DNA of 64,000 nt from Thermoplasmata archaeon (GTDB taxonomy: Archaea > Thermoplasmatota > Thermoplasmata > RBG-16-68-12 > JAFNFQ01). Of this stretch, positions 30,429 through 55,675 are shown in pieces. Within the stretch, counting starts at the first letter, position 1. The number at the start of each line of letters is the position of its first letter. The notes under the pieces are model-generated. The model had not been told where the DNA came from. It ran no database searches and was given only the letters and a program-made list of their open reading frames with translations. Position numbers and translations under genes: made by a program. The stretch covers positions 32,001 to 96,000 of the forward strand of contig JBGPQV010000005.1 of assembly GCA_041489255.1 (NCBI GenBank). The letters run 5' to 3'.

Positions 30429-30561
30429 TCCTGACCATCTCCTGGAGCAGCTTGGCGTCGCGCTCCAGCTGACGCTGTCGCATCTGGAGAGACAACAGAT
30501 ACAGGAATAGGCCGATCGCCACCAATGCTAGTGCTCCGAACAGGAACGCTTCCTCGCTCAA
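30409..30561 (-). CDS. ccmD: CcmD-like small membrane protein (50 aa, absent from ORF track)
   Basis: TTG start overlapping the ccmC stop; MSEEAFLFGALALVAIGLFLYLLSLQMRQRQLERDAKLLQEMVRSGRKPG (TM + charged tail); lies between ccmC and ccmE. Confidence 0.8.
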   Translation of the reverse strand: MSEEAFLFGALALVAIGLFLYLLSLQMRQRQLERDAKLLQEMVRSGRKPG

Positions 30562-31937: not shown

Positions 31938-32638
31938 TTTGTCGCGCCAACCATCTTCTTGTACTCCTCGACGAAATCCCCTCTGGAGACCGCCGTCTTC
32001 TCTTTGTCGTAGACGAGCGCGCCATCGACCAGAACGAGCAACCTATGTCCGAGGTCGTACCCCAATTCCGGGTCATGGGCGGTCAGCAGGACCGTCGCAC
32101 CGTCGGCAATCGCCTGCGTCAGCAGTGATGAGACCTGCCCCCTCGCCTTGATGTCCAGACCCGAGAAAGGCTCGTCCAGCAGCAGAACCTTCGGACTCCC
32201 TAGCATTGCCCTAGCGATCGAGAGCCTCTGCTTCATGCCGCGGGAGAAGGTCCCGACCCTGTCATTCCTCCGGTGGAGGAGGCCGAATCGGGAGAGCATC
32301 TCGTCGATTACCGACTCCTCCGAGGGAACGCCAAGCAGATGCGAATAGAACGTCAGGTTCTCGGCTGCCGTGAGATCCTCGTACAGGAGGGTCTCGTGGA
32401 GCGCAACGCCCACTAGCTTCCGCACCTCGACGGGATTATCGAGTACGCTGTGTCCCCCGATCACCGCATCGCCACTGCTTGGCCGCGAGAGCGTGCATAT
32501 CAGCCTGAGCAGGGTGCTCTTGCCTGCCCCATTAGGTCCAAGGATCACGCAGAGCTGGCCCGGTTCGACATTCAGGTTCAAACCTCTGAGGGCAGGCTTG
32601 CCGCCGTACCTCTTGCCCAGGTCGCGCAGAACCAGCAT
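31934..32638 (-). CDS. ccmA: heme ABC exporter ATPase
   Basis: GPNGAGKS, FSRGMKQRLSIARA, LDEPFSGLD; upstream of ccmB. Confidence 0.9.
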   Translation of the reverse strand: MLVLRDLGKRYGGKPALRGLNLNVEPGQLCVILGPNGAGKSTLLRLICTLSRPSSGDAVIGGHSVLDNPVEVRKLVGVALHETLLYEDLTAAENLTFYSHLLGVPSEESVIDEMLSRFGLLHRRNDRVGTFSRGMKQRLSIARAMLGSPKVLLLDEPFSGLDIKARGQVSSLLTQAIADGATVLLTAHDPELGYDLGHRLLVLVDGALVYDKEKTAVSRGDFVEEYKKMVGATK

Positions 32639-32664
32639 GGTGCGGTGTGCAACTTTGAGGGCAG

Positions 32665-32678
32665 TATAAAGCCTTTAT
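32665..32678 (-). promoter_or_regulatory. BRE/TATA for a leaderless ccmA transcript, within inverted repeat ATAAAG-C-CTTTAT
   Basis: Minus strand AAAGGCTTTATA about 26 nt before the ccmA ATG. Confidence 0.5.
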
Positions 32679-32685
32679 TCGAAGA

Positions 32686-32931
32686 TCATTGCTCCATCAT
32701 GATGCGCTTGATGATAACATCCCGACCTTCCACGGTCTCAAGCACGAGTTCGGCATCCTTGAAATCCGTGTCGGCAACGAGGAGTTCGTACGCCTGCTTG
32801 AGGCTCTCTGTCGAATAGCCGGAGGAGTTGCCCACGCTGAGCTCGATCAGAGTGACTTTGTTCGCTTCCTTTGCCTTCATCTCGGCAAGCGTCTTCTCGA
32901 TGAGATCTTGGATCAACGCAAACTCGTGCAT
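32686..32931 (-). CDS. hypA: HypA-like nickel metallochaperone lacking the zinc finger
   Basis: N-terminal MHE, ELSVGxxSG..ESL, AEL, GRDVIIKRI; no cysteines. Confidence 0.85.
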   Translation of the reverse strand: MHEFALIQDLIEKTLAEMKAKEANKVTLIELSVGNSSGYSTESLKQAYELLVADTDFKDAELVLETVEGRDVIIKRIMMEQ

Positions 32932-33455
32932 CGACTCGCCTCAGACTTCTCCTCTTGACTTTCGCTTCTTGGCGGTGCTCCTCGGATGGATTCCTGGGTC
33001 GTGCTGTAGCCCCATTGCGCAACGACTTTCATAACTTCTTGGACAAGAGCGGGGATTCCTCGGCGCACCTCTGCACTCACTCCCGCCCCGATAACCTGCG
33101 AGTCGCCTATCTGCATCGCGACGACGACCACGCGGCGGGGGATTGTCATTCCCGCGTGTCTCGCCAGCTCCAGAGCCTCAGGGAGTCCTAGGTAGTGGGC
33201 CGAAGGAACAATCCTGGGACCCATTTCCGACAGACTCAGCTGCACAACCTCTCCGGGTTTATCGCCGATGACGGAGTCCACGACTACGAGGTCGTCGAAT
33301 CCTTCGACTAGGTCGACGAGATACAGGCCGGAGAGAGCGCTCTTTGCGACCTTGGCTCCAGGGATTGACAGCCGCTCGAGAGCGTCTGCCGCCAGCAGGC
33401 CAACCCCATCGTCCCCCAGCAAGTCGTTTCCGAGAGCGAGGATCAGGAGGGACAT
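32913..33455 (-). CDS. hydrogenase maturation protease
   Basis: LGNDLLGDDGVG, VVVDS, SAH; ATG at 33455 overlaps the mvhA end. Confidence 0.9.
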   Translation of the reverse strand: MSLLILALGNDLLGDDGVGLLAADALERLSIPGAKVAKSALSGLYLVDLVEGFDDLVVVDSVIGDKPGEVVQLSLSEMGPRIVPSAHYLGLPEALELARHAGMTIPRRVVVVAMQIGDSQVIGAGVSAEVRRGIPALVQEVMKVVAQWGYSTTQESIRGAPPRSESQEEKSEASRCTSLR

Positions 33456-34933
33456 GTCTCGCTCTGTCTCACGATCTCCTGCAGAAGCTTGCCGCGCAAG
33501 TCGAACACTTGCACCTTCAGTGGCATGCTCCCCGGCATGGAGTGAGTCGCGCAGGCATGGCAAGGGTCGTAGGCGCGGAAGGCCATCTCGATTTTGTTGA
33601 GTATTCCGTCATCGACCACCCCGCCCTTTATTGCGGAGCGAGCCGCCTTGTCCACCGACATCGCAATCCTAGCCGAGTTGTGTTGCGTCGCAACGAGGAG
33701 GTTGGCACTCGTGAGGATTCCTCTCTCATCGCTCTTGTAGTGGTGGATGAGAGTACCACGCGGGGCCTCCGTGACGCCCATGCCCTCGCTTGGCTTCTCC
33801 GTCGGCAAGTTCCTGATGTCGGTCCCTGTTATGTCCGGATCGTTGACCAGCTCCTTGAATCGCTCGGCCGCGTACACAATCTCGATTACCCTGGCCCAGT
33901 GGTTCGCCAGCGTGTGATGCACAGGCTTGGTGCCCAAGGTCTTGAAGAACTTCTCGTAGAGCTTCTGGGCATTCGGTGTCGCCATGCCGTCCGAGGCATT
34001 AAGTCTGGCTAGGGGTGCGACGCTGTAGATCCCGCTCTCGGGACCGTCAACGAAGCCGTGCCATCCCAGTCTCTTCAGGTACGGGAATTTGACGTACGTC
34101 CATGGCTCCGAATGCTCTGCAATGTGGCTCAGATAGTCCTGTACCCGGAATTTCTCAGTTTCCTTGCCGGACGGATCAACAACCCTGATCATTCCGTCGT
34201 AGAAGTTCACGTGGTTGTTCTTGTCCATGAGGCCCATGTAGCTGGTCTTATGAGTGTAGGCGTCGGAGACGATCATGTTCACGTAGTCCTTGTTGCTCAA
34301 CACCAGATCCTCGAGGACCTTCTCGCAAAAGAGAGCGAACTCCACGCCTCGGTCCGCCACTTTCGCGTATCGATCCCTGGCCTCCTCCGTCACGCCCTTC
34401 GCGACGCCGCCAGGCAGGCCAAATACCGGATGGATGACTTTGCCGCCCAACTCCTGGATGATGTTCCTCAGATCCTTCCTCATGAAAATGACCTTCTTCC
34501 CAACTTCCAGGCCAACCTTCTGAAGGACGCCGAGGATGTTTCTGTCCCCCTTGGGGGCAGTCGGGCCCACTATGAAGTCCGGCCCGCCGAGGAAGAACAG
34601 ATGCAGCGAGTGGTCCTCCAGTATGAAGACGCTGTAGAGCATCTCCCTGATCTTCTTGGCGGTCTTTGTGGGCTCGACCTTGAACAAGTCGTCCAGGGCC
34701 TTCGTAGCCGCCATGTGGTGGGCGGTTGGGCATACCCCGCATATCCTAGACGTAATCTGCGGAGCATCCTCAGCTTGGCGTCCAACCAGGAAGTTCTCGA
34801 AACCCCTCAGTTCGGGAATCTGGAAATAGGCCCTCGACACATCGCCACGGTCGTCCAGGAAAATGACGATCCTGCCGTGCCCTTCCAGTCTCGTTATGGG
34901 GTTTACGACTATTTGTTTGGTTGCACCGGTCAT
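33443..34933 (-). CDS. mvhA: group 3c [NiFe] hydrogenase large subunit
   Basis: TRLEGHG, ELRGFE, RICGVC (L1), RAYDPCHACATH (L2) + cleavable tail. Confidence 0.95.
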   Translation of the reverse strand: MTGATKQIVVNPITRLEGHGRIVIFLDDRGDVSRAYFQIPELRGFENFLVGRQAEDAPQITSRICGVCPTAHHMAATKALDDLFKVEPTKTAKKIREMLYSVFILEDHSLHLFFLGGPDFIVGPTAPKGDRNILGVLQKVGLEVGKKVIFMRKDLRNIIQELGGKVIHPVFGLPGGVAKGVTEEARDRYAKVADRGVEFALFCEKVLEDLVLSNKDYVNMIVSDAYTHKTSYMGLMDKNNHVNFYDGMIRVVDPSGKETEKFRVQDYLSHIAEHSEPWTYVKFPYLKRLGWHGFVDGPESGIYSVAPLARLNASDGMATPNAQKLYEKFFKTLGTKPVHHTLANHWARVIEIVYAAERFKELVNDPDITGTDIRNLPTEKPSEGMGVTEAPRGTLIHHYKSDERGILTSANLLVATQHNSARIAMSVDKAARSAIKGGVVDDGILNKIEMAFRAYDPCHACATHSMPGSMPLKVQVFDLRGKLLQEIVRQSETCPS

Positions 34934-35907
34934 TCTCGTTTCACCTCCAAGGTCCTTCTCATGAAAGAGGTTGGGAGTGAGTACCTGTAGAAGAGACCAA
35001 CAGGGTCGGGGACCTTCTCCAAGACCTTGGCGATGTCCTTCTCCTCGTTGAAGTCCACAATCGACGAGAGGAAAGCGACTCCCTTGGCCCCGTAGTCCTT
35101 GACCTCGTCAGTCGGACCGAAGCAGCCAGTGCAGGGCATGTTCCCGCCAATGCAGAGGGCCTCGCAGCCGCCACGGGTGACGGGCCCCAGGCACAGCACT
35201 CCCTGCGCCAGGAGGCACTTCTTCGGGTCAACCTGCACTTCGTGGACCCTCTTCAACTCCTTCAAGAGGAGCTTCTCTGGCTTGGACTCGTTGAGGTTGC
35301 ACTCGTGGCACAACGCCCGCGTCCCAGCCAGCACGGATCCGGGTGGCGGAAGCTTCCCGCTGAGCAGCGCCTGGACGGCATTCGCGAGGAGCTTCGGAGT
35401 CGGAGGGCATCCCGGGAGGTAGTAGTCCACCTTGATCACTTGATCGAGGGACTTGACCGTGTCCCAGAAAGACGGCAGCTCCAACATCCCCTCGGGCACC
35501 TCGACCTTCATTAGAGGCTCGCTGCCGTTCTGCCCTTGGACGGTGGGGCCCTTGTGGTAGTAGTAATCGAAGATTGAGTCTTTATCCCACAGGTTCGCCA
35601 GGCCGGGGATGCCACCCATGTGGGAGCAACTCCCGAAGGCTATGACGACCTGAGACTTCTTCCGGAGGAGCTTGGCCATCTCTTCCTGTTCGGAGAGCCT
35701 GACGGCACCGTTGATGAAGCTCACCGTTATGCTCCCGTCCTTCATGGCTTCCACGTCTTCCACCTTGAAGTCCAAGGCCACCGGCCAAAACACGATGTCC
35801 ACTGCGGCGACAACGTCCAGCACGGCCTCGGCGAGGTCAACAACCGCCTCCTCGCAGCCTCCGCAGGATGCGCACCAATAGAAAGCCACCTTCGGTTTCT
35901 TCGCCAT
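34930..35907 (-). CDS. mvhG: group 3c hydrogenase small subunit
   Basis: CASCGGC, FGSC, PGCPP, CHEC, CLLAQGVLCLGPVTRGGC...PCTGC. Confidence 0.93.
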   Translation of the reverse strand: MAKKPKVAFYWCASCGGCEEAVVDLAEAVLDVVAAVDIVFWPVALDFKVEDVEAMKDGSITVSFINGAVRLSEQEEMAKLLRKKSQVVIAFGSCSHMGGIPGLANLWDKDSIFDYYYHKGPTVQGQNGSEPLMKVEVPEGMLELPSFWDTVKSLDQVIKVDYYLPGCPPTPKLLANAVQALLSGKLPPPGSVLAGTRALCHECNLNESKPEKLLLKELKRVHEVQVDPKKCLLAQGVLCLGPVTRGGCEALCIGGNMPCTGCFGPTDEVKDYGAKGVAFLSSIVDFNEEKDIAKVLEKVPDPVGLFYRYSLPTSFMRRTLEVKRE

Positions 35908-36330
35908 CTACTTGCCCCCGTTCTCTTTGACAGGTCCCAGTTTCCTTACATGCTCTGTCATTTCCTCTACCGCTCGTCTGAACTTCTCCGGCTCCGATGC
36001 AGAAATCCACTCCAGGCGGAGCCGCTCATCCTCGAAGCCTAGCTGCGAAAGCATCTTCTTCAGGAGGAGGTACCGCCTGAGGGTCTTGTAGTTGCCCTCA
36101 TTGTAGTGGCAATCCCTTGGATGGCAACCACAGATCATCACGCCGTCGGCCCCTTTCTCGAACGCGGACATGACGAACTGGGGATCCACCCGCCCGGAAC
36201 ACATCAGCCTGATGAGCCGGACATTGGGTGAGTACCTGGCCCGGGCCGTCCCGGCAGCGTCAGCGGCAATGTAGGTACACCAGTTGCACACGAAGGCCAC
36301 AATCCTCGGCTCGAACCGCTCTGACGTCAT
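35908..36330 (-). CDS. mvhD: [2Fe-2S] adaptor subunit
   Basis: CNWCTY, MCSGRVDP, GCHPRDCHY, WISASE. Confidence 0.95.
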   Translation of the reverse strand: MTSERFEPRIVAFVCNWCTYIAADAAGTARARYSPNVRLIRLMCSGRVDPQFVMSAFEKGADGVMICGCHPRDCHYNEGNYKTLRRYLLLKKMLSQLGFEDERLRLEWISASEPEKFRRAVEEMTEHVRKLGPVKENGGK

Positions 36331-38312
36331 ATTGTCAACACCCCCGAGATCTCGGCCATGATCTGGTCATACTCGAACAGCTTCTGACGCGCCGCTCCGC
36401 TCGGGCAGGCCGCGACACACACGCCACAGCCCTTGCAGAGGACGTCGTTGATGACCGCCACCTTTTTCTCCTTGACCAAGGCGATTGCCGTGTATGGGCA
36501 AAGCGCGATGCAGACTTGACAGCCCGAGCACAGCTCCTCCTCGATGTAGGCGAGGTTGGGCTCCAGAGTGAGGAAGCCCTTGGAAGTTAAGGATATGGCC
36601 CCTGCTGCGGCTGCCTCGCCTTGGGCCACCGACTCCGGGATGTCCTTCGGGCCCTGACAGGTGCCTGCTATGTAGATTCCCTCGGTGATCGTGGCGACTG
36701 GCGCAAGCTTTGGGTGCTTCTCCATGAAAAAGCCTTCGCTGCTGCACGCCATGTTCAGCAGGCGCCGGACATCCTCCTTGTCCGGCTGGGGCTCCAGTCC
36801 CACACTGAGTATCACCATGTCCACAGGAATGCGCCTAATCGTCCCCAACAAGGTGTCCTCCGCGACGATTACTAGCTTCTCCCCTTCCTCCGTCGACTCG
36901 GCAACTTCAGTCACCTCTGCCACCTTGCCGCGTATGAAGTTGACACCCTCTCCAAGAAGTCGCTGATAGAACTCCTCGTATGATTTGCCAGGAGTGCGTA
37001 TGTCAATGTAGAAGTTGTAGACATCCGCACCCGTTCTTTCCTTCACAAGATGAGCCATCTTCAGAGAGTACATGCAGCACACCTTGGAACAGTACGTGTT
37101 GTAGTTCTCGTCCCTGGAGCCGACGCAGTGGATGATGCCAACGGCCTTGGGCTTCCGTCCGTTCCGATTGACAACTTCACCACCCGTGGGTCCGCTTGGG
37201 GAAAACATCCTCTCCATCTCCAGAGCATTGTACACCTCAGGGTACTTCCCATAGCCGTAGTTGCTCATCTTTGAGGCATCGAATATCTTATGGCCGGTTG
37301 CGACGATGATTGTTCCCACATCTAACTCCACTATCTGCTCCTTCTGATCGAAGTCGATTGCGTTCCTGTCTCCGCAGGCTGCCACACAGGTCTTCTTGCA
37401 GTTGTGCGTCTTGAACTCGATGCAAGTGTTTGGATCGATAGTGGCTACCTGAGGGATTGCCTGAGGGAACGGGATGTAGATGGGCTTCCTCTTCCCTAGG
37501 CCCAAGTCGAACTCGCTTGGGAACCTGGCTTCCTTGTAGACGCAATTCTCGATGCACTCATAGCAGCCAACGCATTTCTCTTCGTCGACGTACCTGGGCC
37601 TGCGTCTGACAGTAACCTTGAAGTTGCCAACATATCCGTCGACCTTAGTCACGTCGGAATAGGAGAGCAGCTTGATGTTGTGGCGGTTCTTCACTGTGGT
37701 CATTTTCGGAGTGAGGATGCAGGCCGAGCAGTCCAGAGTCGGGAAGGTCTTGTCGAACTTCGCCATGTGACCTCCTATTGATGGCTCTTTCTCCACCAGA
37801 TAGACCTGTTTGCCTGCATCTGATGCCGTGAGCGCAGCTTGGATGCCAGCAATGCCCCCGCCAATGATCAGAATCTCGTCTCTGACTGGAACTTTGCGAC
37901 GCTCCAGCGGGGTATGGTGGACAATCCTCGCCACGCCAGCGGCCACCAGCGCCTTCGCTTTCTCGGTCGCTTCGTGCTTGTCGCTTGTCACCCACGATGC
38001 TTGCTCGCGAATGTTCACCATATGGGAAAGGAAGGGATTGCCTCCAGCTTCTTCCACAGCGGTGCGGAACGTGGCCTCGTGGAGATGCGGCGAACAAGAA
38101 GCCACCACGATCCGATTCAGGCCAAGTTCGCGGACATCTTTCTTGATCATATCCTGGCCCGGGCTGGAACACATATACTTGTACTCTCTAGCCACCGCAA
38201 CTCCCCTGAGTCCTTTCGCGAACTCGACCACTTCTGGGACGTTGACGACGCCAGCTATGTTCGTACCACAATCACAGACGTAGACACCTATCTTGATTTC
38301 CTGCTCTGTCAT
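36327..38312 (-). CDS. hdrA: heterodisulfide reductase subunit A (FAD, Fe-S)
   Basis: IGVYVCDCGTNI, GGGIAG, DKTFPTLDC, HCVGSRD, CSKVCC, GPKDIP, ferredoxin motifs; ATG at 38312. Confidence 0.96.
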   Translation of the reverse strand: MTEQEIKIGVYVCDCGTNIAGVVNVPEVVEFAKGLRGVAVAREYKYMCSSPGQDMIKKDVRELGLNRIVVASCSPHLHEATFRTAVEEAGGNPFLSHMVNIREQASWVTSDKHEATEKAKALVAAGVARIVHHTPLERRKVPVRDEILIIGGGIAGIQAALTASDAGKQVYLVEKEPSIGGHMAKFDKTFPTLDCSACILTPKMTTVKNRHNIKLLSYSDVTKVDGYVGNFKVTVRRRPRYVDEEKCVGCYECIENCVYKEARFPSEFDLGLGKRKPIYIPFPQAIPQVATIDPNTCIEFKTHNCKKTCVAACGDRNAIDFDQKEQIVELDVGTIIVATGHKIFDASKMSNYGYGKYPEVYNALEMERMFSPSGPTGGEVVNRNGRKPKAVGIIHCVGSRDENYNTYCSKVCCMYSLKMAHLVKERTGADVYNFYIDIRTPGKSYEEFYQRLLGEGVNFIRGKVAEVTEVAESTEEGEKLVIVAEDTLLGTIRRIPVDMVILSVGLEPQPDKEDVRRLLNMACSSEGFFMEKHPKLAPVATITEGIYIAGTCQGPKDIPESVAQGEAAAAGAISLTSKGFLTLEPNLAYIEEELCSGCQVCIALCPYTAIALVKEKKVAVINDVLCKGCGVCVAACPSGAARQKLFEYDQIMAEISGVLTI

Positions 38313-40300
38313 AATGCCTCCTCCACTAACTCTATTAGGTCCTTGATATGGAGGGTATTCTCCAATCCAGCGGCTTTCACCGCGTCCGTAAACATCACAT
38401 AGTCTTTGGGGCAAGCCACAATAAGTGTGTTCACACCCGGGAGGCCTGCCGCTTCCTTGACTCTTATCTCAGCCGGTCGCTCCTTTTCACCAGGGATTTC
38501 TTCCATCCAGATTCTCCCGCCACCGGCACCGCAGCAGAAGCTCTTCGTCTTGTTTCGGGGCATCTCCACCAAGTCAACACCCAGAGCCTTCAGGACGTTC
38601 CTGGGAGCCTGGTAAATCCCGTTGTAGCGTCCTAGGTAGCACGGGTCGTGGTATGTGACTTTATACCCGAGTTTTCGAGAGAGCTTCAAGCGACCACTTT
38701 GCATGAGTTCATCCAGAAGCTCTGTATAGTGGAGTACTCTCCCCCCGTTGACGCGCGGATATTCGTTCTTCAGAGTGTTGTAGGTATGGGGATCTGTTGT
38801 GACGATGTCATGGAAGTTGCTGCCTTTGATAGTCTCCAGGTTTTCGTCTCGCAGCTTCCCGAAGAGGCCCTCCTCCCCGGCTCTCCGAACGTCATTCCCC
38901 GCATTCCGTTCTCCCTCATACATGATTCCGTAGTCGACGCCCAGCCGTGAAAGCACGTTGGCGGTCTTGACGGATAGTTCCTGGCATCGGGCATCGTAGG
39001 ACGCGTAGTCCCCCACGAACCAGAGCTTGTCCGTCAGCTCTTTTCTCGTATCCTTGATGGGCGGTGTGATTTTCCGGGTCCACTTGGTTCGGGCCTTGGG
39101 GGTGCCCTTGAACGAGTTCCCGTACCGGTCAAGGCTCTCCAAGGCTCTTTGGAGGCCCGCGTCAACATTGCCCTTCGACACAAGGTGTCGCCGCATCTCC
39201 AGGATCTTGGAAAGATGATCGTTGAACACGGGGCAACCGTCAACACAGGACAGGCAGGTCATGCACGCCCACGTGGCTTCGGGGCTCTGGACTGAGATGA
39301 ACAAGTCTTGGGCAACCGGCACGCCGCCGTCCGCGGGCAACCTTGTCGGCTCTGCCAATGGCCCGGCTTTCCCGAGTGATGCGTCTCTCAACCGAGTCAT
39401 AAGGTGCATGGGATCTAGGGAGGTGCCGCTGATGTTGGAGGGGCAATTGTCCGTGCACCGACCGCACTCCGTGCAAGCGAAGCCGTTCAGGAGGGAAATC
39501 CATGATAGATCGAAGACCGACCGGGCTCCTGGAGAGTCGGCCTTTTCGGGCGGCACAGGGCTCATTGTCCCTAGCGGTTCGGGCCTCCTGAAGAAGATGT
39601 TGAGAACCGCGAAGATGAGGTGGGAGTGTTTTGTGTACGGGAACCAAGCCAAGAACACGAAGAGGGCCGCCAAATGGAGCCACCGCATCGAGAACTCCAG
39701 TCCCGGAGCATTCCCTGCAAGACCCGTCCAGTTCAGGCCGCTAGCTATGAAGGAACTCACGGGCCTCCATGACCCCAATGCAGTTGCCTCGTCCTCGATG
39801 ATCTTGGCCGAGTTGAGGAACAGGAAGGAGACTAGGATGGTCAGGATGAAAAGGAGCATCACGATGGCCGCGCGGTTGCCCTCATGCATCAATCGTTTTG
39901 GCTTAGAGATGGTGCGGCGATATATGGCCATACCCACGCCGACGATGCCCAGGGCCGACACCAAGTCTTGTCCCAAATACAGCGGACCGTTGAGAGGTCC
40001 GAATGGTAGCACGTAGCCCTCTATGTATCCCTCGGCGACTATCTCCGCCACGCTGAAGAAGAGAAACACGAAGGCCCAGAAGATGAAGGCATGAAGAAAC
40101 CCAGAGGACTTCTCCCTGTACACCTTCCGCTGGAAGATGCCATACACAATGACATTCCATATCCTCTGCCCTAGGTGGTCTGTCCATTTCTCTTTGGTTC
40201 CCTTCCTTACGGCGCGAATGATCTGGTACAGCCTGAAGAAGAAGAAGGCAAGACTGGCGCCTATCAGTGCAGTGAGTACGATTTGCCCCTCTAGATTCAT
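38309..40300 (-). CDS. membrane Fe-S oxidoreductase (NarI-like cytochrome b + 2x[4Fe-4S] + CCG; HdrF/FadF/EMO-like)
   Basis: N-terminal TMs with FLHAFIFW, WLHLA and KHSH; CTECGRC, CMTCLSC; YHDPCYLGR, SFCCGAGGG. Confidence 0.9.
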   Translation of the reverse strand: MNLEGQIVLTALIGASLAFFFFRLYQIIRAVRKGTKEKWTDHLGQRIWNVIVYGIFQRKVYREKSSGFLHAFIFWAFVFLFFSVAEIVAEGYIEGYVLPFGPLNGPLYLGQDLVSALGIVGVGMAIYRRTISKPKRLMHEGNRAAIVMLLFILTILVSFLFLNSAKIIEDEATALGSWRPVSSFIASGLNWTGLAGNAPGLEFSMRWLHLAALFVFLAWFPYTKHSHLIFAVLNIFFRRPEPLGTMSPVPPEKADSPGARSVFDLSWISLLNGFACTECGRCTDNCPSNISGTSLDPMHLMTRLRDASLGKAGPLAEPTRLPADGGVPVAQDLFISVQSPEATWACMTCLSCVDGCPVFNDHLSKILEMRRHLVSKGNVDAGLQRALESLDRYGNSFKGTPKARTKWTRKITPPIKDTRKELTDKLWFVGDYASYDARCQELSVKTANVLSRLGVDYGIMYEGERNAGNDVRRAGEEGLFGKLRDENLETIKGSNFHDIVTTDPHTYNTLKNEYPRVNGGRVLHYTELLDELMQSGRLKLSRKLGYKVTYHDPCYLGRYNGIYQAPRNVLKALGVDLVEMPRNKTKSFCCGAGGGRIWMEEIPGEKERPAEIRVKEAAGLPGVNTLIVACPKDYVMFTDAVKAAGLENTLHIKDLIELVEEAL

Positions 40301-41283
40301 GCCCCACCTTTAGATTCCTTGATCTTCTCCGTGAGAACTGGAACCAAGTCCTGGACGTCCAGCGTCGTACCATAGTGGGCGACCTCAAAGATGGGGGCAT
40401 CCGGATCGGTGTTGACAGCGACTATCAGCTCCGAGTCCTTCATGCCCTCGACATGCTCAGGGGCGCCACTGATTCCCAAGGCCAGGTAGAGGCGCGGCTT
40501 CACGATTGCGCCAGACCTACCCACCTGTCGCGTTCTGGGAAGCCATCCTTGGTCTACCACAGGCCTCGTGCCGCACACGGCACCACCTAGGAGTTCGGCC
40601 AGTTCGGTCAGGGCCTTCACGTTATCAGCTCCCTGAACTCCGCGCCCAGCGCCAACAAGAACGGGGACTTTCGTCAGATCGACGTCTGCTGCATCAGGTT
40701 CGACAAGTTCCCGGAACTGGATTCGAAGGCCAGTCAAAGGCACAGGGGAGTCCCGAATCTCAACCTCTGGGACCACATTCTTCGTACCTCCTTCCTTAGG
40801 GTAGCTTCCAGACATCAGGACGCAGAGAACCATCCCCTGCTCCACTTCGCTTCGAGCTGTGAGCTTGCCGCCGTACAGCTTGCTTGTGACCAGCACCTTA
40901 CCACCGTCGAGTTCAATTCGTGTACAGTTGCCAACTGTGGTGGCACCCAAGGCGACGGAGAGGGATCCTGCGAGATCCATCCCTATGCTCGTGCTCCCCA
41001 TGAGAACGAGTCTCGGAGACAAATCCTTCAGCAGGTGGCTCAGCACCTTGGTGTAGGCCTCCGGGTTGAACGCGCCCAAAATCGGATCCTTCACAATGAT
41101 TGTTTTGTTCGAAGCGAATGGCAACGCTTTGAATGGTCCAGGGTCGCTCGTCAGGACTACGCAGATTAACCCGGACCCGGAAGCATCAGCAAGCTCCCGG
41201 CCGCAGGCCAACATCTCCAAAGTGATGTCCGCCAACTCGCCTCTTAGGTGCTCCGCCACGACTACGATGCCGCCGGGACTCAT
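40297..41283 (-). CDS. etfA: electron transfer flavoprotein alpha (copy 1)
   Basis: TRPVVDQGW, QVGRSG, GISGAPEH, VNTDPDAPIF. Confidence 0.95.
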   Translation of the reverse strand: MSPGGIVVVAEHLRGELADITLEMLACGRELADASGSGLICVVLTSDPGPFKALPFASNKTIIVKDPILGAFNPEAYTKVLSHLLKDLSPRLVLMGSTSIGMDLAGSLSVALGATTVGNCTRIELDGGKVLVTSKLYGGKLTARSEVEQGMVLCVLMSGSYPKEGGTKNVVPEVEIRDSPVPLTGLRIQFRELVEPDAADVDLTKVPVLVGAGRGVQGADNVKALTELAELLGGAVCGTRPVVDQGWLPRTRQVGRSGAIVKPRLYLALGISGAPEHVEGMKDSELIVAVNTDPDAPIFEVAHYGTTLDVQDLVPVLTEKIKESKGGA

Positions 41284-42047
41284 AGCAGTCCACGCTCCTT
41301 CAAGAGACCGGCAATCCCGGCTGCGACCTTCGCCTCATCGCCTTCTAGCATCTTTGCCCTGGCACCAGCCTCAGGCTTCTGCAGCTGGGTGATGTGGACT
41401 CCCGCCACACCTGGCACGGGCGTCTTCAATTCCTTGACTTGCAGCGTCTTCTTGGCCTGCATCACCTTGCTCACGGGCACGTATCTGGGCGGTTGCTCTG
41501 AAGACTGTATTCCTAGGACAGCAGGAGAAGTGACGTCCATCACACCGATGCGACCGCCGGGGTACTCCTTCTTGACTGTGGCTTTCCCGCCACCGGGAGG
41601 CATGTCGACGCCCACAAGGCCACCCACATATGGCATTGAGAGGTGGGAGGCCAGAAGGCCACCGAGGCTACCATCCACCTGATCGGCCGCCTGCATACCG
41701 GAGAGGATGAGGTCGAATCCCCCATCTCGCAGAAGGGAGGCCAGGTGCATGGCCAGCTTGTGGTTGTCTCCGCGGTCCTTGAATTCCAATGGGACGTAGA
41801 CGGCTTCATCGGCTCCCTTGGCCACAGACGTGGCCAGAGCGTCCCGCGCCTCGCTCCCTCCGATGCCGTAGGCGGCAACATGGGCGCCATGACGCCCCTT
41901 CAGGATGAGGGCCTGCTCCAGAGCGTGATCATCCAGCTCGTTTGTGATGTACATCACATCGTCTTCGGACAGGCTCCGTCCATCCTCGGCTATCACGAGC
42001 TCTTCCACCACGTCTGGAACCTGGCGGATGATTACCGCCACCTTCAT
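41280..42047 (-). CDS. etfB: electron transfer flavoprotein beta (copy 1)
   Basis: RQVPD, NELDDHALEQAL, GMQAAD, PPRY. Confidence 0.95.
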   Translation of the reverse strand: MKVAVIIRQVPDVVEELVIAEDGRSLSEDDVMYITNELDDHALEQALILKGRHGAHVAAYGIGGSEARDALATSVAKGADEAVYVPLEFKDRGDNHKLAMHLASLLRDGGFDLILSGMQAADQVDGSLGGLLASHLSMPYVGGLVGVDMPPGGGKATVKKEYPGGRIGVMDVTSPAVLGIQSSEQPPRYVPVSKVMQAKKTLQVKELKTPVPGVAGVHITQLQKPEAGARAKMLEGDEAKVAAGIAGLLKERGLL

Positions 42048-42050
42048 TCC

Positions 42051-43286
42051 CTACACGCCCCCTACGAGGCCCAAGGCATCGGCAAGCATGTGAGAAATCT
42101 CCCTCACTTGCAGACGACCCTCGAGACCGGAACTCTTTATGGCATCTTCGAAGCGTGGAATCTCCAAAGGACAGGAGACGGCAAGAATGTCAGCTCCGGT
42201 CCTTGCCGCTTCTTGGACTCTCTGGATCGGGAGGGGCACCCTCGTGCGCTCCCAGATGAAGCTGTCGAGCCACATGGCTCCTCCACCGCCACCGCAACAG
42301 AGTGCGTTCTCCTTGTTCCTCGGCATCTCCAGTATCTTGACACCTGGAATAGTCTCAAGGAGACTCCTAGGTGCCTCGTATATCTCGTTCTTGCGACCGA
42401 GGCAACAAGAATCATGGTAGGTGACTTTTGCATCGATCTTCTTTTTCAGAAGCTTGGTCAGCTGCGGAATTCTCTCCTCCAGGAACTGTGTGTAGTGGTT
42501 TATGTGGTAGGCAGTCCCCATGCGAGCGTACTCCTGGGAGAGTGCATTGTAGGCGTGGGGGTCGCCTACCAGGACTTCATTGAAACTCCTGCCGGCGAGT
42601 TGCAGGGAATTGTGTTCATAAAGCAGGTTGAACAACCCCTCTTCTCCCACAGCAGTGCAGCGCAGATCTCCAGCGCACCATTCGTCAGAACCCATGATCC
42701 CGAAGTCTACATCGAGGACATTCAGCAGCTTGGCGAGAGCTATCGTATCTTTGAGGTTCGCCTTATTGTATGAGGGAAAGCATCCGACGTGCCAGAGGAC
42801 ATCTGCCGAATCTCCTTCTTTGAGGACTCGCACCTTCACTCCGGCCTCTTTGATCCATGCGTCCCTCTTCTTTGGGGACTCCCCGAAGGGATTGCCGTAT
42901 CTGGCGGTCCTTTCGAAAGCGGTTTGCAGCTCCTTGGGAACTCCGACACCTGTCATCAGCAGCTCCTCTCGCAGGGAAGGTATTAGCCTCTCAGCCAAGG
43001 GGATGCCGCTGGGGCATCGATAGCTGCAGTTGAAGCACGTGACGCATAGCCAGATGCTGTCGCTTCGGAACAGGTCATCAAGACGCCCTGCGCGCAGCGC
43101 CGCTATTATTCGCCGCGGCGGGTAGTCCATTGCATAACCATGCGGGCAGACACCAGCACACATGCCGCACTGGATGCAGTCTCGTACCTTCATGCCGTCC
43201 GGAAGTTTCTCCAGGCGATTCATGAAGGCCTGGGTTACGCTCAATTCAGGGATCGCGGACACTTCATTCGGAACGGTGCTAGACAC
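42051..43286 (-). CDS. soluble HdrC/HdrB-type fusion (HdrD-like) Fe-S CCG protein
   Basis: CIQCGMCAGVCP, CVTCFNCSYRCP, YHDSCCLGR, ALCCGGGGG; SD AAGGAGG + GTG. Confidence 0.9.
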   Translation of the reverse strand: MSSTVPNEVSAIPELSVTQAFMNRLEKLPDGMKVRDCIQCGMCAGVCPHGYAMDYPPRRIIAALRAGRLDDLFRSDSIWLCVTCFNCSYRCPSGIPLAERLIPSLREELLMTGVGVPKELQTAFERTARYGNPFGESPKKRDAWIKEAGVKVRVLKEGDSADVLWHVGCFPSYNKANLKDTIALAKLLNVLDVDFGIMGSDEWCAGDLRCTAVGEEGLFNLLYEHNSLQLAGRSFNEVLVGDPHAYNALSQEYARMGTAYHINHYTQFLEERIPQLTKLLKKKIDAKVTYHDSCCLGRKNEIYEAPRSLLETIPGVKILEMPRNKENALCCGGGGGAMWLDSFIWERTRVPLPIQRVQEAARTGADILAVSCPLEIPRFEDAIKSSGLEGRLQVREISHMLADALGLVGGV

Positions 43287-43980
43287 GTCGAACTACCTCC
43301 TTCAGAGTAGGGCTCTCCAACACAACCCAGTTCACAAGACTCGCACAAGTCTCTTCGTCGGCTCTGGTCATCTCGACTATGTTCACTGCAAAGCCTCCCG
43401 CGGACGGGTGTTATGACGAACGAGAATCGCGAAGGTTGATGATTGGTATCTTCTTATTCCATATATACACAGGAATGTCTAAAGCCGTCCTATATATAGC
43501 TAATATGAATATGCGCGAATGGATAATGATTATCGAAGAAGTCAGTCCGCAGCAAGTTAGCGATAGCTCTGTAACCGTATCGACCATCAAGGAAGATACT
43601 GGAAGCACAGAAGAGGAGATTGAATGGAGCGCCCCATCTCATACTTGCTCTCCATGAACGACTTGGCAGCAGGTCGCCAAGGCCAGTGAGTTCGATTCGC
43701 GTTTCTTGTGGCGTCATCGGCTGCAATCGAGATTGATTCATCGACGACAAGATGATGTTTCGCGGCCCGGAGAGGGATCTTAGGCGAGAAGTGTTCGCCG
43801 CTGTCGTGCGAACTCATGGGCCGACCGACTAGGTCTTTAGTGATTGCCAAGGCGATTCCGAACCGAATGGCGCATACAGTATATTCGGCATGCTCTCAGA
43901 TAAGAGGCAGATATCTATCGGCAAAAAAAAACGCTCGCAAACAAGCTCTCCACGACTCCAAGTGAAAGGAGGCTCACACA

Positions 43981-44262
43981 ATGCCCTTCACGGAGCTAGA
44001 TATCGCCCTGAATCTGGTTGCAACCGTTGTGACTGTGGCTTTTAACGCACTTGCCATGCAATAGAAGAACTTGACGCGGGCGGTCTTCTCCTTCGCAGTT
44101 GCCAGTGCGTCCCTCGCGACGTTGTTTTTCCTTCTTGCTTCACCGTTTGCCGCCGTGCTCGAACTCACCGTGGGTGCCGGGCTCATAGTTGTCTTGTTCT
44201 TGGTGGCTCTCACTCTGTCGATGGGAGAAGAGAAAGAGGTTGCCGAAGGAGGCGAGACATGA
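43981..44262 (+). pseudogene. paralog of 48714 (NuoJ-N/MbhD-like) with in-frame TAG at 44062
   Basis: MPFTELDIALNLV...AMQ*KNLTRAVFSFAV aligns with MALTEIDLVLNVV...AVQQKDLMRAVFSFAV (CAG->TAG). Confidence 0.85.
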
Positions 44263-44501
44263 GATCGGCCAAGACGGTTGCCGCAGGAATCCTCTCGCTC
44301 CTCGTCGTTGCACTCTTGATTTCTCTTTTCTTGAAGACAACGTTTCACGAGCCCCATGCGACTCCACAGAGCGCGAGTCCTGGCGGGACTCTCTGGGACT
44401 CGCGGAACTTCGAGACGATTCTGCAGGGCCTGCTGATCCTCAGCGGTGTGTTTGCGACACTAATGCTGCTCAGGTCGTCGACGAAGGAGACGAAGCAATG
44501 A
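44259..44501 (+). CDS. paralog of 48992 small hydrogenase membrane subunit (frame intact, in decayed operon)
   Basis: LWDSRNFETILQGLLIL vs LWESRDFETILQGLLIL. Confidence 0.75.
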   Translation: MRSAKTVAAGILSLLVVALLISLFLKTTFHEPHATPQSASPGGTLWDSRNFETILQGLLILSGVFATLMLLRSSTKETKQ

Positions 44502-44548
44502 CAAGCCCAGGAGACCTTGCAGTGGGGGCGGACCTCACCGCCATTGCC
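44498..44548 (+). pseudogene. first ~17 codons of a NuoK/MbhG-like paralog, truncated at the junction
   Basis: MTSPGDLAVGADLTAIA vs MTTPGDLIVAVDFTAIA at 49231. Confidence 0.8.
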
Positions 44549-45063
44549 GCTCCCGCGTCCTGGACGATCCGAGCCGCGTTGTAGAGTAGGAAGGAGACCA
44601 GGGTGGCCAAGATGAAGAGTAGCATAACGATGGCCGCACGGTCCCCTTCGTGCATGAGGCGTTTCGGCTTCGAGACGGTCCGGCGATAGACTGCCATGAG
44701 CACGCCCACTATGCCGAGGGTGGCCACGAGATCCTGCCCGAGGTAGAGAGGTCCATTCAGCGGGCCCAGAGGGAGCGTGTAACCGGGGATGTACCCCGCC
44801 GCGACAATCTCGACGACGCTGAAGAAAAGGAACACGAAGGCCCAGAAGATGAAGGCGCGGAGAATCCCAGCCGGGCGTTCGCGGCAGATCTTCCTCTGGA
44901 AGATCCCATCCAGCACGACGTGTTTGATGAGGACTCCTAGGTGGTCCCACCATTTCTCCGGTATCCCCTTGCTGACGCCCTAGATGATCGTGACGACCCT
45001 CATGAGGACGAAGAGGGCCGAGACGCCGAGGATTCCCGTGAGGGCGATCTGATCGGGGTTCAT
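44549..45063 (-). pseudogene. N-terminal fragment of a second membrane Fe-S oxidoreductase (HdrF-like)
   Basis: Aligns with the first ~170 aa of 38309-40300; in-frame TAG at 44980-44982; FLHAF->ILRAF; truncated near 44550. Confidence 0.88.
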
Positions 45064-46046
45064 TGGCCGCCCTTCGCTTCCTTGATCTTTTCCAACAGGA
45101 TCGGGACGAGCTCGAGCAAGTCCACCGTCGCGCCGTAGTGGGCGATGTCGAAGATGGGTGCCTCTGGGTCCTTGTTCACCGCGATGATGAGCTCCGATCC
45201 GTTCATGCCCTCTGTGTGTTCCGGGGCGCCGCTGACCCCTAGCGCCAGGTAGAGCCGCGGCTTGACAGTCATCCCCGACCGACCGACCTGACGGGTCCTC
45301 GGAAGCCATCCTTGGTCGACGACGGGCCTCGTTGCGCAAAGAGCGCCTCCGAGTTCCCTGGCCAATGCCTCCAACTCGGCGAGGTTGTCCTTGGATTGCA
45401 CGCCTCTGCCTGCGGCGACCAGGAACGGAATCTTCCTCACATCGACGTCTTCCATCTTCGGCTCGATGAGTTCCACAAAGCGAACGGAGAGGGGCTTGAC
45501 GGCCGCCGGAGCCGACCGGATCTCGAAGGGCGGGACCTCGTCCCGCATTCCGAGTTCGCGGTGGAAGCTCCCGGGCATCACGAGCACGATGACCAACCCC
45601 TCCCCTTGCTCGATGCGCGCGACGAGCTTGCCGCCGCATAGCCGGCTCGTGACGACGATTCGGTCTCCTTCCGCGCGGAGCCCCACGCATCCGCTGATGG
45701 CAGGAGCCCCGAGGCCGTAGGAAAGGGGACCCGCGAGGTCGATGCCGATGCTCGTGTTCCCCAGGATTACGAGCCGTGGGGCCAGATCCTTCAGTAAACG
45801 CGGGAGGACGCGCGCATAGGCCGCCGGGTTGGGCGCCCCCAAGCTGGAATCCTTCACGACGAGGACCTTGTCTGCCACGAGCGACAGCCCCTGGAACGGC
45901 TTCGGGTCGTCCGCGAGGATGAGGCACGTGACGTGCCACCCGACGGAGTAGGCAAGCTCGCGAGCACCCGCGAGCATTTCGAGGGTGATGTCGCTGAGCT
46001 CCCCTCCCATATGCTCGGCAACGACGACGATCTCGCGCGGGATCAT
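45060..46046 (-). CDS. etfA: electron transfer flavoprotein alpha (copy 2)
   Basis: Same length (328 aa) and motifs as copy 1. Confidence 0.93.
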   Translation of the reverse strand: MIPREIVVVAEHMGGELSDITLEMLAGARELAYSVGWHVTCLILADDPKPFQGLSLVADKVLVVKDSSLGAPNPAAYARVLPRLLKDLAPRLVILGNTSIGIDLAGPLSYGLGAPAISGCVGLRAEGDRIVVTSRLCGGKLVARIEQGEGLVIVLVMPGSFHRELGMRDEVPPFEIRSAPAAVKPLSVRFVELIEPKMEDVDVRKIPFLVAAGRGVQSKDNLAELEALARELGGALCATRPVVDQGWLPRTRQVGRSGMTVKPRLYLALGVSGAPEHTEGMNGSELIIAVNKDPEAPIFDIAHYGATVDLLELVPILLEKIKEAKGGQ

Positions 46047-46810
46047 GCGATACCACGCTCCCGGAGGATGCGGACCAGCTGCTCCGCGACATGCTTCGCG
46101 TCACCAGGGAGCATCTCGGCCCGGGCCGCCGCGCTCGACTTGGTCAGCTTCGCCGCCCGCATCCCCCCAACCACCTGGGGGGGCTCCGCCAGCTCTATGA
46201 CCTGGAGCGTGCGCTTCGCTTGCACGACCCGGCTCACCGGGACGTACCGGGGAGGCTGCTCGGCCGACTGGATGCCGAACACGGCGGGAAGGGAGACCTC
46301 CATCACTCCGAGGCGGCTCCCGGGGAACTCCTTGCGGACGGTTCCCTTGGTCCCGTCCGGCTCGAGGGAAACCGACATCACGCCGCCCACGTACGGAACG
46401 GAGAGGTGCATCGCGAGGAGACCGGGCAAGCCGGCGTCCACCTGGTCCGCGGCCCAGACTCCGGTTAGGATTAGGCTGTACCCCGCCGACTTCATCGCCG
46501 GGCTGAGGACCGAAGCGAGCCGCACATTGTCGCCCCGATGCTCAGATGGGATGGGGACCAGGATGGCCTCGTCCGCCCCCTTTGCCGTTGCGGTCGCCAA
46601 GGCATCCTTCGCGTCGTCTCCGCCCACGGCCACCGCGGTGACCCTTGCCGCGTGGCGGGCTTTCAGGATGAGAGCCTCTTCCAAGGCGTGCTCGTCCCCC
46701 TCATTCGTGATGTGCATGACTTCGTCTTCCGCGAGGCTCCTTCCGTCCTCGGCGATCACAAGTTCCTCGACGACGTCGGGAACCTGTCGGAGGATGACCG
46801 CAATCTTCAT
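46043..46810 (-). CDS. etfB: electron transfer flavoprotein beta (copy 2)
   Basis: MKIAVILRQVPDVVEEL; true start ATG 46810 (ORF-track extension to 47317 is spurious). Confidence 0.93.
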   Translation of the reverse strand: MKIAVILRQVPDVVEELVIAEDGRSLAEDEVMHITNEGDEHALEEALILKARHAARVTAVAVGGDDAKDALATATAKGADEAILVPIPSEHRGDNVRLASVLSPAMKSAGYSLILTGVWAADQVDAGLPGLLAMHLSVPYVGGVMSVSLEPDGTKGTVRKEFPGSRLGVMEVSLPAVFGIQSAEQPPRYVPVSRVVQAKRTLQVIELAEPPQVVGGMRAAKLTKSSAAARAEMLPGDAKHVAEQLVRILRERGIA

Positions 46811-46998
46811 GGGTTGAACCCCCCAACGAGTCCCATTGCCTCCGCCACCATGTGAGAGATTTCCCGGACTTGAAGGCGGCCCTCGAGGCCCGATGTCTTG
46901 ACCATCGGAAGCTTGAGCATCCGACGCATGAATTCCTCCATGGCGCCGCCCCCCGTCCCCCGCTCTTCGAAGTTCACAAGCAACGATTCCGCAGACAC
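46807..46998 (-). pseudogene. HdrD-like paralog with a large in-frame internal deletion
   Basis: FMRRMLKLP (cf. N-terminal FMNRLEKLP) fused to KTSGLEGRLQVREISHM...GLVGG (cf. C-terminus of 42051-43286). Confidence 0.85.
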
Positions 46999-48034: not shown

Positions 48035-48078
48035 GATCCTGGTCCTGTGCGGGACTCGCCACAAGCATCCTTGATTGA

Positions 48079-55674: not shown

Positions 55675-55675
55675 G

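Follow-up and report, generated by a model that had tools for sequence, protein, structure and literature searches.

Group 3c [NiFe] hydrogenases of the Mvh type are common together with HdrA in non-methanogens without CoM-S-S-CoB, and the acceptor of their electrons has usually been given as an 'unknown heterodisulfide'. In a preprint on Thermoplasmata lineages basal to Methanomassiliicoccales, the acceptor of Hdr/Mvh was left as an unknown disulfide. Here, a ten-gene locus is described that lies on the minus strand of a 64,000-nt stretch of DNA from a Thermoplasmata archaeon (genome G000; assembly GCA_041489255.1, contig JBGPQV010000005.1, positions 32,001 to 96,000), which is called the window throughout and whose own numbering is used. 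The genes of an Mvh hydrogenase and of HdrA are preceded in this locus by those of an HdrD-like protein (B3), an electron transfer flavoprotein (ETF, composed of EtfA and EtfB) and a membrane-bound ETF:quinone oxidoreductase (EMO). In our judgment the chances are about even that the ten genes form one operon encoding an H2-dependent, flavin-based bifurcating system in which the membrane quinone pool, rather than a heterodisulfide, serves as the high-potential acceptor.

The output half of the locus has a described counterpart in sulfur oxidizers, the type II sHdr cluster, which is arranged as shdrC1B1AHB3-etfAB-emo (PMC11094781, citing Cao 2018, Justice 2014, Kumpel 2024) and for which a route from sHdrB3 through EtfAB and EMO to menaquinone was already proposed (PMC11094781). 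The two have in common the gene order B3-etfB-etfA-emo, a dedicated EtfBA, a single-cluster EMO and the same proposed role toward menaquinone, with identities of 41-49% for B3, 39-47% for EtfA and 38-40% for EMO. They differ in the input half, which consists of sHdrC1, sHdrB1, a short sHdrA (about 355 amino acids), sHdrH and LbpA in type II sHdr, whereas the locus encodes a full-length HdrA, MvhD, MvhG, MvhA and a maturation protease. The electron source is protein-bound sulfane sulfur in the former and, as proposed here, H2 in the latter. Because the HdrA of the locus carries ferredoxin domains, bifurcation to ferredoxin would be possible, unlike in type II sHdr.

The input half resembles the MvhAGD-HdrABC complex (5odc) in its full-length HdrA, group 3c MvhA, MvhD and MvhG and in the HdrC-like, two-cubane N-terminus of B3, whereas separate HdrB and HdrC and the ligands of the second non-cubane cluster are absent and EtfAB and a membrane protein are added. 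The membrane protein has the architecture of EMO/EtfD/HdrF, as defined for HdrF in PMC2702500 and found beside etfBA in EtfD of M. smegmatis (9ojn), EMO of S. aciditrophicus and HdrF3 of D. autotrophicum; the solved EMO/EtfD enzymes keep both non-cubane sites in modified form, whereas the EMO described here is single-site and is linked to HdrA and Mvh. EtfABCX/FixABCX, in which a mid-potential donor is bifurcated to ferredoxin and menaquinone (PMC10734219), is a functional analog and not a relative. Its donor is NADH and not H2, its bifurcating flavin is located in EtfB and not, as proposed here, in HdrA, and it uses FixCX in place of EMO; the FixC/FixX-type ETF:quinone oxidoreductase family was not matched by any protein of the operon in Pfam and NCBIfam scans.

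Evidently the same gene set was encountered before in Anaerolineae/Dehalococcoidia, as clusters of group 3c hydrogenase, HdrA2B2C2D and ETF. It was reported in a Chloroflexi preprint (10.1101/2021.08.23.457424) that group 3c genes were preceded by HdrABC and 'in some cases' by ETF genes, and its figure gives ETF-QO, ETF beta, ETF alpha, HdrD, HdrC2, HdrB2, HdrA2, hydrogenase subunits and HycI. These versions have an extra HdrB2C2 (compare locus L023 below), and no acceptor or path is given in the available parts of that preprint, which are also silent on an occurrence in archaea, on the identity of B3, on NCB domains with a single cluster and on co-occurrence across phyla. No paper assigning a function or an acceptor to the operon, or describing the operon in archaea, was retrieved by a literature search, beyond which the supplement of the Chloroflexi preprint may go further.

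Gene content and cofactor sites of the operon

All ten minus-strand open reading frames (ORFs) in 32686-43286 matched the expected families in Pfam and NCBIfam scans (Table 1), in agreement with an earlier model-made annotation from the letters alone (the sequence-only reading), which had listed ten abutting or overlapping minus-strand genes of these families. Its claim that the window contains no separate hdrB or hdrC also holds for the 41 ORFs between 24 and 59 kb to which the family scans of the window were applied, ORFs left of 24 kb being outside the scan. A start of hdrA at TTG 38414 was replaced, since the start regions give ATG 38312 behind GGAGGAGG (661 amino acids), and the start of the maturation protease was corrected to ATG 33455 from the same reading of start regions. 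The B3 gene begins with GTG, preceded by GGAGG. Five junctions (etfB/etfA, etfA/EMO, EMO/hdrA, hdrA/mvhD and mvhG/mvhA) are 4-nt ATGA overlaps, and the remaining ones are a 3-nt gap, one abutment and overlaps of 13 and 19 nt. Such start/stop overlaps and close junctions are the signature of one translationally coupled operon, and the ATGA overlaps argue for a single transcript of the ten genes.

Table 1. Features of the operon and of the DNA upstream of it, in window coordinates
Feature	Coordinates	Strand	Basis or remark
sHdrB3-type HdrD-like protein (B3), 411 aa	42051..43286	-	Pfam Fer4 dicluster + CCG
EtfB, 255 aa	41280..42047	-	Pfam ETF
EtfA with FAD domain, 328 aa	40297..41283	-	Pfam ETF + ETF_alpha
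Membrane HdrF/EMO/EtfD-type ETF:quinone oxidoreductase, 663 aa	38309..40300	-	QmoC/NarI-like + dicluster Fer4 + CCG
Full-length HdrA, 661 aa, presumed bifurcating flavoprotein	36327..38312	-	HdrA2 model 823 bits
MvhD, 140 aa	35908..36330	-	Pfam FlpD E 1.8e-54; VhuD 139 bits
MvhG hydrogenase small subunit, 325 aa	34930..35907	-	VhuG 203 bits; Oxidored_q6
MvhA group 3c [NiFe] large subunit, 496 aa	33443..34933	-	VhuA 387 bits
Hydrogenase maturation endopeptidase, 180 aa	32913..33455	-	TIGR00072 90 bits; Pfam HycI
Short HypA-like nickel chaperone, 81 aa	32686..32931	-	Pfam HypA model positions 1-69 of 112
Unique 770-nt upstream region	43287..44056		AT-rich TATA-like stretches about 43450-43520
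Diverged partial copy: operon 5' half + mbh 5' region	44057..46902	-	tblastn/blastn

The best solved match of B3 was the soluble part of EtfD (9ojn_A, E 3.5e-50), compared with E ~1e-15 (about 59 bits, over the N-terminus) for HdrC chains and 8e-4 for HdrB, and it has no transmembrane segment and is soluble. For the alignment, 32 of roughly 38 candidate orthologs were used, one being dropped for a stop codon and the others left out. The invariant cysteines are C37, C40, C43, C47, C81, C84, C87 and C91, which form two cubane motifs, and C294, C330, C331 and C372 in the CCG/NCB domain. Just 19 of the 32 orthologs retain C169 and C204 of the N-terminal CCG half, where 'DPHA' is read in place of the 'CPxC' of EtfD; in the C-terminal half the last Cys is replaced by an invariant Glu (E375). 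Four of five ligands are thus present at one non-cubane site and at most two of five at the other.

The two non-cubane clusters of HdrB were reported to be ligated by ten Cys and to bind the thiols of the heterodisulfide, one per cluster (preprint). Neither B3, with four invariant NCB Cys and two more in 19/32 orthologs, nor the EMO of the operon, with four, has the two complete CCG sets of HdrB, and judged by these ligands each of their CCG domains can hold at most one non-cubane cluster. Lacking the ligands of a second cluster, they resemble domains for electron transfer rather than sites of disulfide reduction, and B3 accordingly looks like an electron-transfer adaptor rather than a disulfide reductase. 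The order sHdrB3-then-etfAB-emo of the type II sHdr cluster is matched by B3-etfB-etfA-EMO, so the HdrD-like protein is assigned to the sHdrB3 type, a fusion of HdrC and HdrB. By family and gene order, the operon can be described as a known quinone-output module (B3-EtfAB-EMO) joined to a methanogen-type MvhAGD-HdrA module.

In the input module, HdrA was aligned with 5odc_A over residues 2-649 of 654 (716 bits); every Cys motif of the printed alignment was matched, with a single 6-residue insertion inside the inserted ferredoxin domain, as expected of a full-length protein with FAD and Fe-S clusters. The motifs RICGVCPTAHH and AYDPCHACATH of MvhA fit the group 3c motifs L1 (ICGxCxxxH) and L2 (AYDPCxxCATH) (PMC6085437), which together with the matches to the VhuA, VhuG and VhuD models places the hydrogenase in group 3c. 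MvhD contains six Cys. Apart from MvhA, no large subunit of the group 3 type was found in the genome.

The ETF of the operon belongs to a lineage found only beside B3 and/or EMO. Identity of its EtfB is 28-31% to the two other EtfB of the genome and 36-68% to EtfB of B3/EMO clusters elsewhere; the corresponding values of EtfA are 30-33% and 37-69%. Among solved structures, EtfB was closest to 1o94_C, which is non-bifurcating and AMP-binding (102 bits vs 64 bits for 5ol2_B), and EtfA matched 5ol2_A, of the bifurcating type, with 167 bits and 1o94_D with 147 bits. The EtfB segment aligned to 'QAIDGDTAQVG' of 5ol2_B, which we take to separate bifurcating from plain EtfB, reads 'MQAADQVDGSLG'.

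The EMO gene adjoins etfBA, and its product was aligned with EtfD of M. smegmatis (9ojn_A) across the membrane and soluble parts (E 2e-73). A QmoC-like NCBIfam match was found at residues 31-158, and transmembrane segments were predicted at 7-25, 71-89 and 144-162, together with weaker ones. H70 and H227, invariant in all 63 aligned rows, align to the region of the heme ligands His78/His241 of EtfD (by eye, so possibly off by one), giving the NarI-like membrane domain with heme-b His that characterizes EMO/EtfD/HdrF. The cubane cysteines C276, C279, C282, C286, C346, C349, C352 and C356 are invariant, whereas none of the four Cys of the N-terminal CCG is present (D, N, D and T are read) and D633 stands at the last C-terminal Cys position. 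This single-site pattern occurs in 50/63 rows; 11 keep Cys at most positions, including the genome's own paralog on contig C1, and two (L076 and L077, at 32% identity and perhaps misaligned) differ again. The single site is read as marking a subtype of EMO/EtfD/HdrF, not as an exclusion from it. In a solved complex of EMO with ETF, distances of 12 and 13 A separate the flavin of ETF from the two non-cubane clusters (10.64898/2026.08.18.745454), so either could accept the electron and a one-cluster domain would still be a possible partner of ETF. The predicted complex of EtfA, EtfB and B3 scored 0.70 and a control with EtfA replaced 0.63, a difference that counts neither way.

Fusions that would link B3 to its neighbors were also looked for. 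In L054 the B3 and etfB genes are separated by a stop and a 30-nt spacer and are not fused, and none of 33 matches to longer B3 relatives is fused to HdrA or ETF, a blank of little weight. The best eight of these longer relatives (P0001-P0008; Anaerolineales; 746-754 amino acids; 43-46% identity) carry N-terminal HTH_11 and WYL domains and may be redox-sensing transcription factors derived from B3.

Distribution, co-occurrence and phylogeny

Orthologs of B3 (E <= 1e-90) were found in 13 of the 79 genomes of the order. By family, they occur in 8/44 genomes of f4, 4/14 of f7 and in G000 alone in f1; none was detected in the 19 genomes of f2, f3, f5 and f6, nor in G001 of the same genus. The complete order B3-etfB-etfA-EMO-hdrA-mvhD-mvhG-mvhA-protease is present in ten of the 13 (G000, G015, G022, G038, G446, G448, G449, G472, G473 and G478), and the nine besides G000 belong to two other families. 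The locus of G033 is cut inside hdrA, and those of G030 and G032 lie on 1.7- and 5.0-kb contigs.

Beyond the order, public genomes were scanned with patterns derived from the EMO alignment, which favor this EMO subtype, and 80 loci of 605 matches were taken. The full set was recovered in at least six bacterial phyla (Chloroflexota, Acidobacteriota, Verrucomicrobiota, Ignavibacteriota, Bacteroidota and Zixibacteria), under the record titles Chloroflexota/Anaerolineales, Terriglobia/Solibacter/Bryobacteraceae, Verrucomicrobiota/Opitutaceae, Ignavibacteriota, Bacteroidetes and Zixiibacteriota, and also in a Thermoplasmata archaeon (L021). The linkage of etf and hdrF to hdrA-mvh, on which the sequence-only reading depended, is therefore conserved in nine further genomes of the order, a Thermoplasmata metagenome-assembled genome (MAG) and loci of six bacterial phyla. 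All carriers encountered were MAGs. B3 stands directly before hdrA in Verrucomicrobiota, Ignavibacteriota and Bacteroidota, where the genes run etfBA-EMO-B3-hdrA. As a side observation, a Cache-HAMP histidine kinase and a hybrid kinase/receiver are encoded beside or inside the cluster in Chloroflexota (L023, 11903-16985) and Terriglobia (L026, 3000-6553), and L023 has an extra HdrC (187 amino acids) and HdrB (302 amino acids, two CCG) before hdrA.

Co-occurrence was counted in the 40 loci whose EMO is full-length and flanked by at least 7 kb on either side. B3 was accompanied by full HdrA and MvhA in 12/40 loci, by full HdrA with no MvhA in reach in two and by a short sHdrA in ten, and 16 had neither B3 nor HdrA. 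No locus of the 40 had B3 without an HdrA-type gene or HdrA without B3. Since related genomes are not independent, the counts should be read as a pattern rather than a statistic. Those loci without mvh that have an upstream 'HdrA' of 31-38% identity are type II sHdr clusters. That of Alicyclobacillus tolerans (L049) encodes, by Pfam, an HdrC-like protein of 282 amino acids, a CCG protein of 397, a flavoprotein of 355, a family-less protein of 247, B3, EtfB, EtfA, EMO and a GcvH-type protein.

Among 401 sampled genomes of the phylum, with G000 the only one of the order's carriers drawn, 26 had an HdrA match (E <= 1e-200), and none of these HdrAs besides that of G000 itself exceeded 54% identity to the operon HdrA; an EMO gene was upstream of hdrA in 0/27 other loci of this sample. 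The cluster-linked HdrAs of bacteria are 55-66% identical to the operon HdrA. Based on a quick maximum-likelihood tree of 50 rows (SH-aLRT support only, midpoint root), the five cluster HdrAs of Thermoplasmata group together (100). Their clade is nested in one of 13 rows (100) and one of 21 rows (100), in which bacteria supply all the remaining members; with the exception of L081, these derive from loci where the EMO is full-length. The other HdrAs of the phylum are placed elsewhere. Nesting of the archaeal cluster HdrAs among bacterial ones indicates that the operon has crossed between the domains, in a direction that the tree does not settle. The module thus appears to be mobile and common to one Thermoplasmata order and several bacterial phyla. 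Parts of it have also been exchanged, since etfBA and EMO of family f4 occur in two allelic types that are differently combined. In the tree of B3, which includes one row without known context (L078), ten sHdr-linked proteins (99) stand apart from those with full-length HdrA (85).

Proposed electron path and competing explanations

No McrA (MCR_alpha) was matched in the genome (2.74 Mb, 96.5% complete), whereas control genomes were detected correctly, and the nearest named relative is titled Thermoplasmata archaeon; the earlier guess that the organism is probably non-methanogenic is borne out to this extent. Without McrA, production of CoM-S-S-CoB, and thus its use as the substrate, is unlikely. 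For the quinone side, MenA is present above the curated family cut-off, and no match to MqnA of the futalosine pathway was found in the genome. Five acyl-CoA dehydrogenases are encoded, which the two further ETF pairs, 28-33% identical to the operon ETF, could serve, and a canonical EMO paralog with all Cys is located on contig C1. That contig also encodes an HdrA-MvhD fusion. Separate hdrBC elsewhere that partner this HdrA would have counted against the sequence-only reading: an hdrCB pair does exist on contig C7, but it stands beside its own hdrA and mvhD, in the set hdrC-hdrB-hdrA-mvhD. A third Hdr-ETF neighborhood (L015, contig C3, 143445-150044) encodes an MvhD-like/ferredoxin protein and a 384-residue HdrD-type protein in which CCG was matched twice; a canonical etfB-etfA pair lies about 3.5 kb further on.

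On the basis of the protein families, gene arrangement, lost ligands, synteny and co-occurrence described above, we infer the following contacts and electron path. MvhAG would oxidize H2 and deliver the electrons via MvhD to the FAD of HdrA, where they would be bifurcated, one going uphill to ferredoxin via the ferredoxin domains of HdrA and the other downhill through the cubanes of B3, docked on HdrA in the place of HdrC/HdrB, to its single non-cubane cluster. This cluster would reduce the FAD of the dedicated EtfAB, whose mobile domain would carry the electron to the equivalent cluster of EMO, and heme b and menaquinone would follow. The path would be reversible, so that reduced ETF or quinol together with reduced ferredoxin could yield H2. 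With potentials of about -414 mV for H2, about -450 mV for ferredoxin and about -74 mV for menaquinone (PMC10734219, PMC9304861), the overall reaction would be exergonic. A soluble B3 and an ETF shuttle would be explained if, as the architectures suggest, the membrane domain of HdrDE/EMO takes the HdrA-facing side of the HdrC-like domain. MenA, the ccm genes downstream, the separate canonical EMO and the other ETF pairs support the quinone as acceptor at the level of gene content. The sequence-only reading had already led the high-potential branch through Etf to a membrane carrier; this interpretation is supported here, while the path as drawn is still one deduced from sequence comparison.

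We give a chance slightly short of even to the broader proposal that the operon represents an uncharacterized class of respiratory hydrogenase, namely an H2:menaquinone oxidoreductase that also reduces ferredoxin via HdrA and is wired to EMO in two steps by B3 and ETF. Group 3c hydrogenases of non-methanogens would have in it their long-missing acceptor system, and it would be both a mobile module exchanged between bacteria and Thermoplasmata and a sister of type II sHdr with a different input. B3-ETF-EMO in the place of HdrBC offers a concrete and testable acceptor, the quinone pool, and the operon, which is real, widespread and uncharacterized, suggests how non-methanogens may use a group 3c hydrogenase. 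If the proposal is true, organisms of sediment, wetland and soil could use H2 both for respiration and for low-potential ferredoxin without spending membrane potential; B3-EtfAB-EMO would be a general plug-in output for HdrA-type flavoproteins, fed by H2 here and by sulfane sulfur in type II sHdr; and a case would be added to the operon-level exchanges between bacteria and archaea.

Several observations weigh against the quinone-linked uptake of H2. The complex may work in either physiological direction, and the window encodes a group 4 membrane hydrogenase as well. The hdrCB pair on contig C7 could in principle also serve the HdrA of the operon. Some Chloroflexota have two sensor kinases and an extra HdrC and HdrB between EMO and hdrA, and a disulfide-type acceptor may coexist in these versions. 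Two loci (L030 and L036) have B3 and HdrA with no Mvh within 10 kb. The single-cluster EMO is also found with etfBA alone, as in Mesorhizobium (L051) and Solirubrobacterales loci, so EtfAB-EMO can work without Hdr. The ETF may or may not be a plain one-FAD carrier, EtfB being nearest to the non-bifurcating 1o94_C but EtfA to the bifurcating 5ol2_A.

The question of direction leads to the first competing explanation, in which the same complex produces H2 by confurcation, reduced ETF and ferredoxin being combined at HdrA. The ETF would be fed by acyl-CoA dehydrogenases or other flavin dehydrogenases, or by quinol via EMO, and a fermenter or syntroph would thereby dispose of high-potential electrons. 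All cofactor chains are reversible in known relatives, the EMO of syntrophs acts in reverse electron transport (preprint), the genome has its five acyl-CoA dehydrogenases, and near-identical DNA was found only in runs labeled as sediment, wetland or freshwater-sediment metagenomes. Nevertheless we regard this direction as unlikely. The two other ETF pairs, given their low identity to the cluster ETF, are the likelier partners of the acyl-CoA dehydrogenases, and the canonical EMO paralog is available for that route. The His pattern of the operon EMO fits the mono-heme downhill enzyme, as in EtfD of M. smegmatis, where one heme b passes electrons downhill to menaquinone, and not the tri-heme form driven by proton-motive force. 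For ferredoxin-driven H2 evolution a group 4 hydrogenase is encoded 5 kb away. Moreover, the carriers include MAGs of Acidobacteriota and Verrucomicrobiota, phyla that are mostly respiratory.

The 16 of 40 well-flanked loci in which the same single-cluster EtfBA-EMO stands without any Hdr gene suggest another division, namely two independent units: MvhAGD-HdrA-B3 as a soluble disulfide or polysulfide reductase, and EtfAB-EMO as an ordinary link of beta-oxidation to quinone. That division is quite improbable, because B3 never occurs without etfBA-EMO in the loci examined, nor without an HdrA-type gene (24/24 well-flanked loci), and because the set stays intact across seven phyla, although B3 may stand either ahead of etfB or between EMO and hdrA. 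Translation is coupled across the supposed boundary by the overlap of the EMO stop with the hdrA start, and B3 keeps 4/5 ligands at one site vs at most 2/5 at the other, whereas HdrB binds two thiols via both sites. It is less probable still, and hardly to be expected, that the operon is a sulfur-oxidizing type II sHdr system or a relative of it with hydrogenase subunits as accessories. B3-etfBA-EMO is indeed the type II sHdr signature, known also in Thermoplasmatota (PMC11094781), and the sHdr-type loci appear as the nearest sister group of B3 in the tree. Set against this, the core genes sHdrC1, sHdrB1, short sHdrA and sHdrH are absent from the operon but present in L049, no GCV_H/lipoate-binding protein, DsrE or TusA was present among the 41 scanned ORFs of the window (24-59 kb; no search was made beyond), HdrA is of the full-length methanogen type, and in the tree the B3 proteins linked to full HdrA stand opposite the clade of sHdr-linked ones (99). 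H2-dependent bifurcation with B3, EtfAB and EMO leading to the quinone pool remains the preferred reading.

Flanking DNA and neighboring genes

The unique region directly upstream of the B3 gene, with its AT-rich TATA-like stretches, is likely the archaeal promoter region of the operon. No similarity was found between the upstream 1.25 kb and five related Thermoplasmata loci, and the region has no Rfam match. A hairpin followed by T9 forms a terminator-like site at 43946-43933; terminator-like sites (15 vs 13.8 expected) are not above chance, and sigma-70-type promoter sites numbered four (5.9 expected) under a model that is not applicable to archaea.

Farther upstream lies a diverged partial copy that the sequence-only reading had missed. 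Positions 44057-44541 share 70% identity with 48790-49274, where the mbh/mrp operon has its 5' end, and 44541-46899 have 65% nucleotide identity to 39775-42137 (2.4 kb). The copy contains an N-terminal fragment of EMO (44542-45051; 170 codons, with an in-frame TAG and the heme ligand H70 changed to R), intact etfA2 (45060-46046) and etfB2 (46049-46810), and a B3 remnant made up of the last 28 codons (46819-46902). Comparison of 44057-49274 with 39775-44541 shows a diverged tandem duplication, the copies being offset by about 4.7 kb. Its junctions are bridged by contigs of samples X3, X4 and X5, which span the whole stretch, and a 4733-nt backward joint in sample contigs was attributed to the paralogous copy and rejected as an independent rearrangement. 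The etfBA of G015, G472, G473 and G478 are 76-84% identical to the upstream copy vs 57-62% to the operon etfBA. Contigs of X7, one of four other samples compared, cover 31500-37737 and 44966-48779 at >=95% identity, with none between (37847-44770), suggesting a related strain whose B3-etfBA-EMO part is divergent or present in a single copy.

At the other end of the operon, the HypA-like protein keeps the MHE N-terminus (nickel site) and has no zinc-ribbon half. It is the sole HypA match in the genome, and an 80-residue counterpart directly follows the protease gene in G038. A frameshifted remainder was considered and ruled out, since only 47 nt lie between hypA and ccmA. The ccmA, ccmB, ccmC and ccmE-like genes (30012-32638) follow on the same strand. 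Their transcription together with the operon is possible, and their presence suggests that this archaeon has c-type cytochromes. On the upstream side, a group 4 membrane-bound [NiFe] hydrogenase with Mrp-antiporter-type subunits is encoded on the plus strand (48714-58732). Its large subunit (55631-56860) keeps both CxxC nickel-iron motifs, and its operon ends in its own HycI-type protease. By gene content, the group 4 operon and the Mvh operon together can be regarded as a hydrogen-metabolism island.

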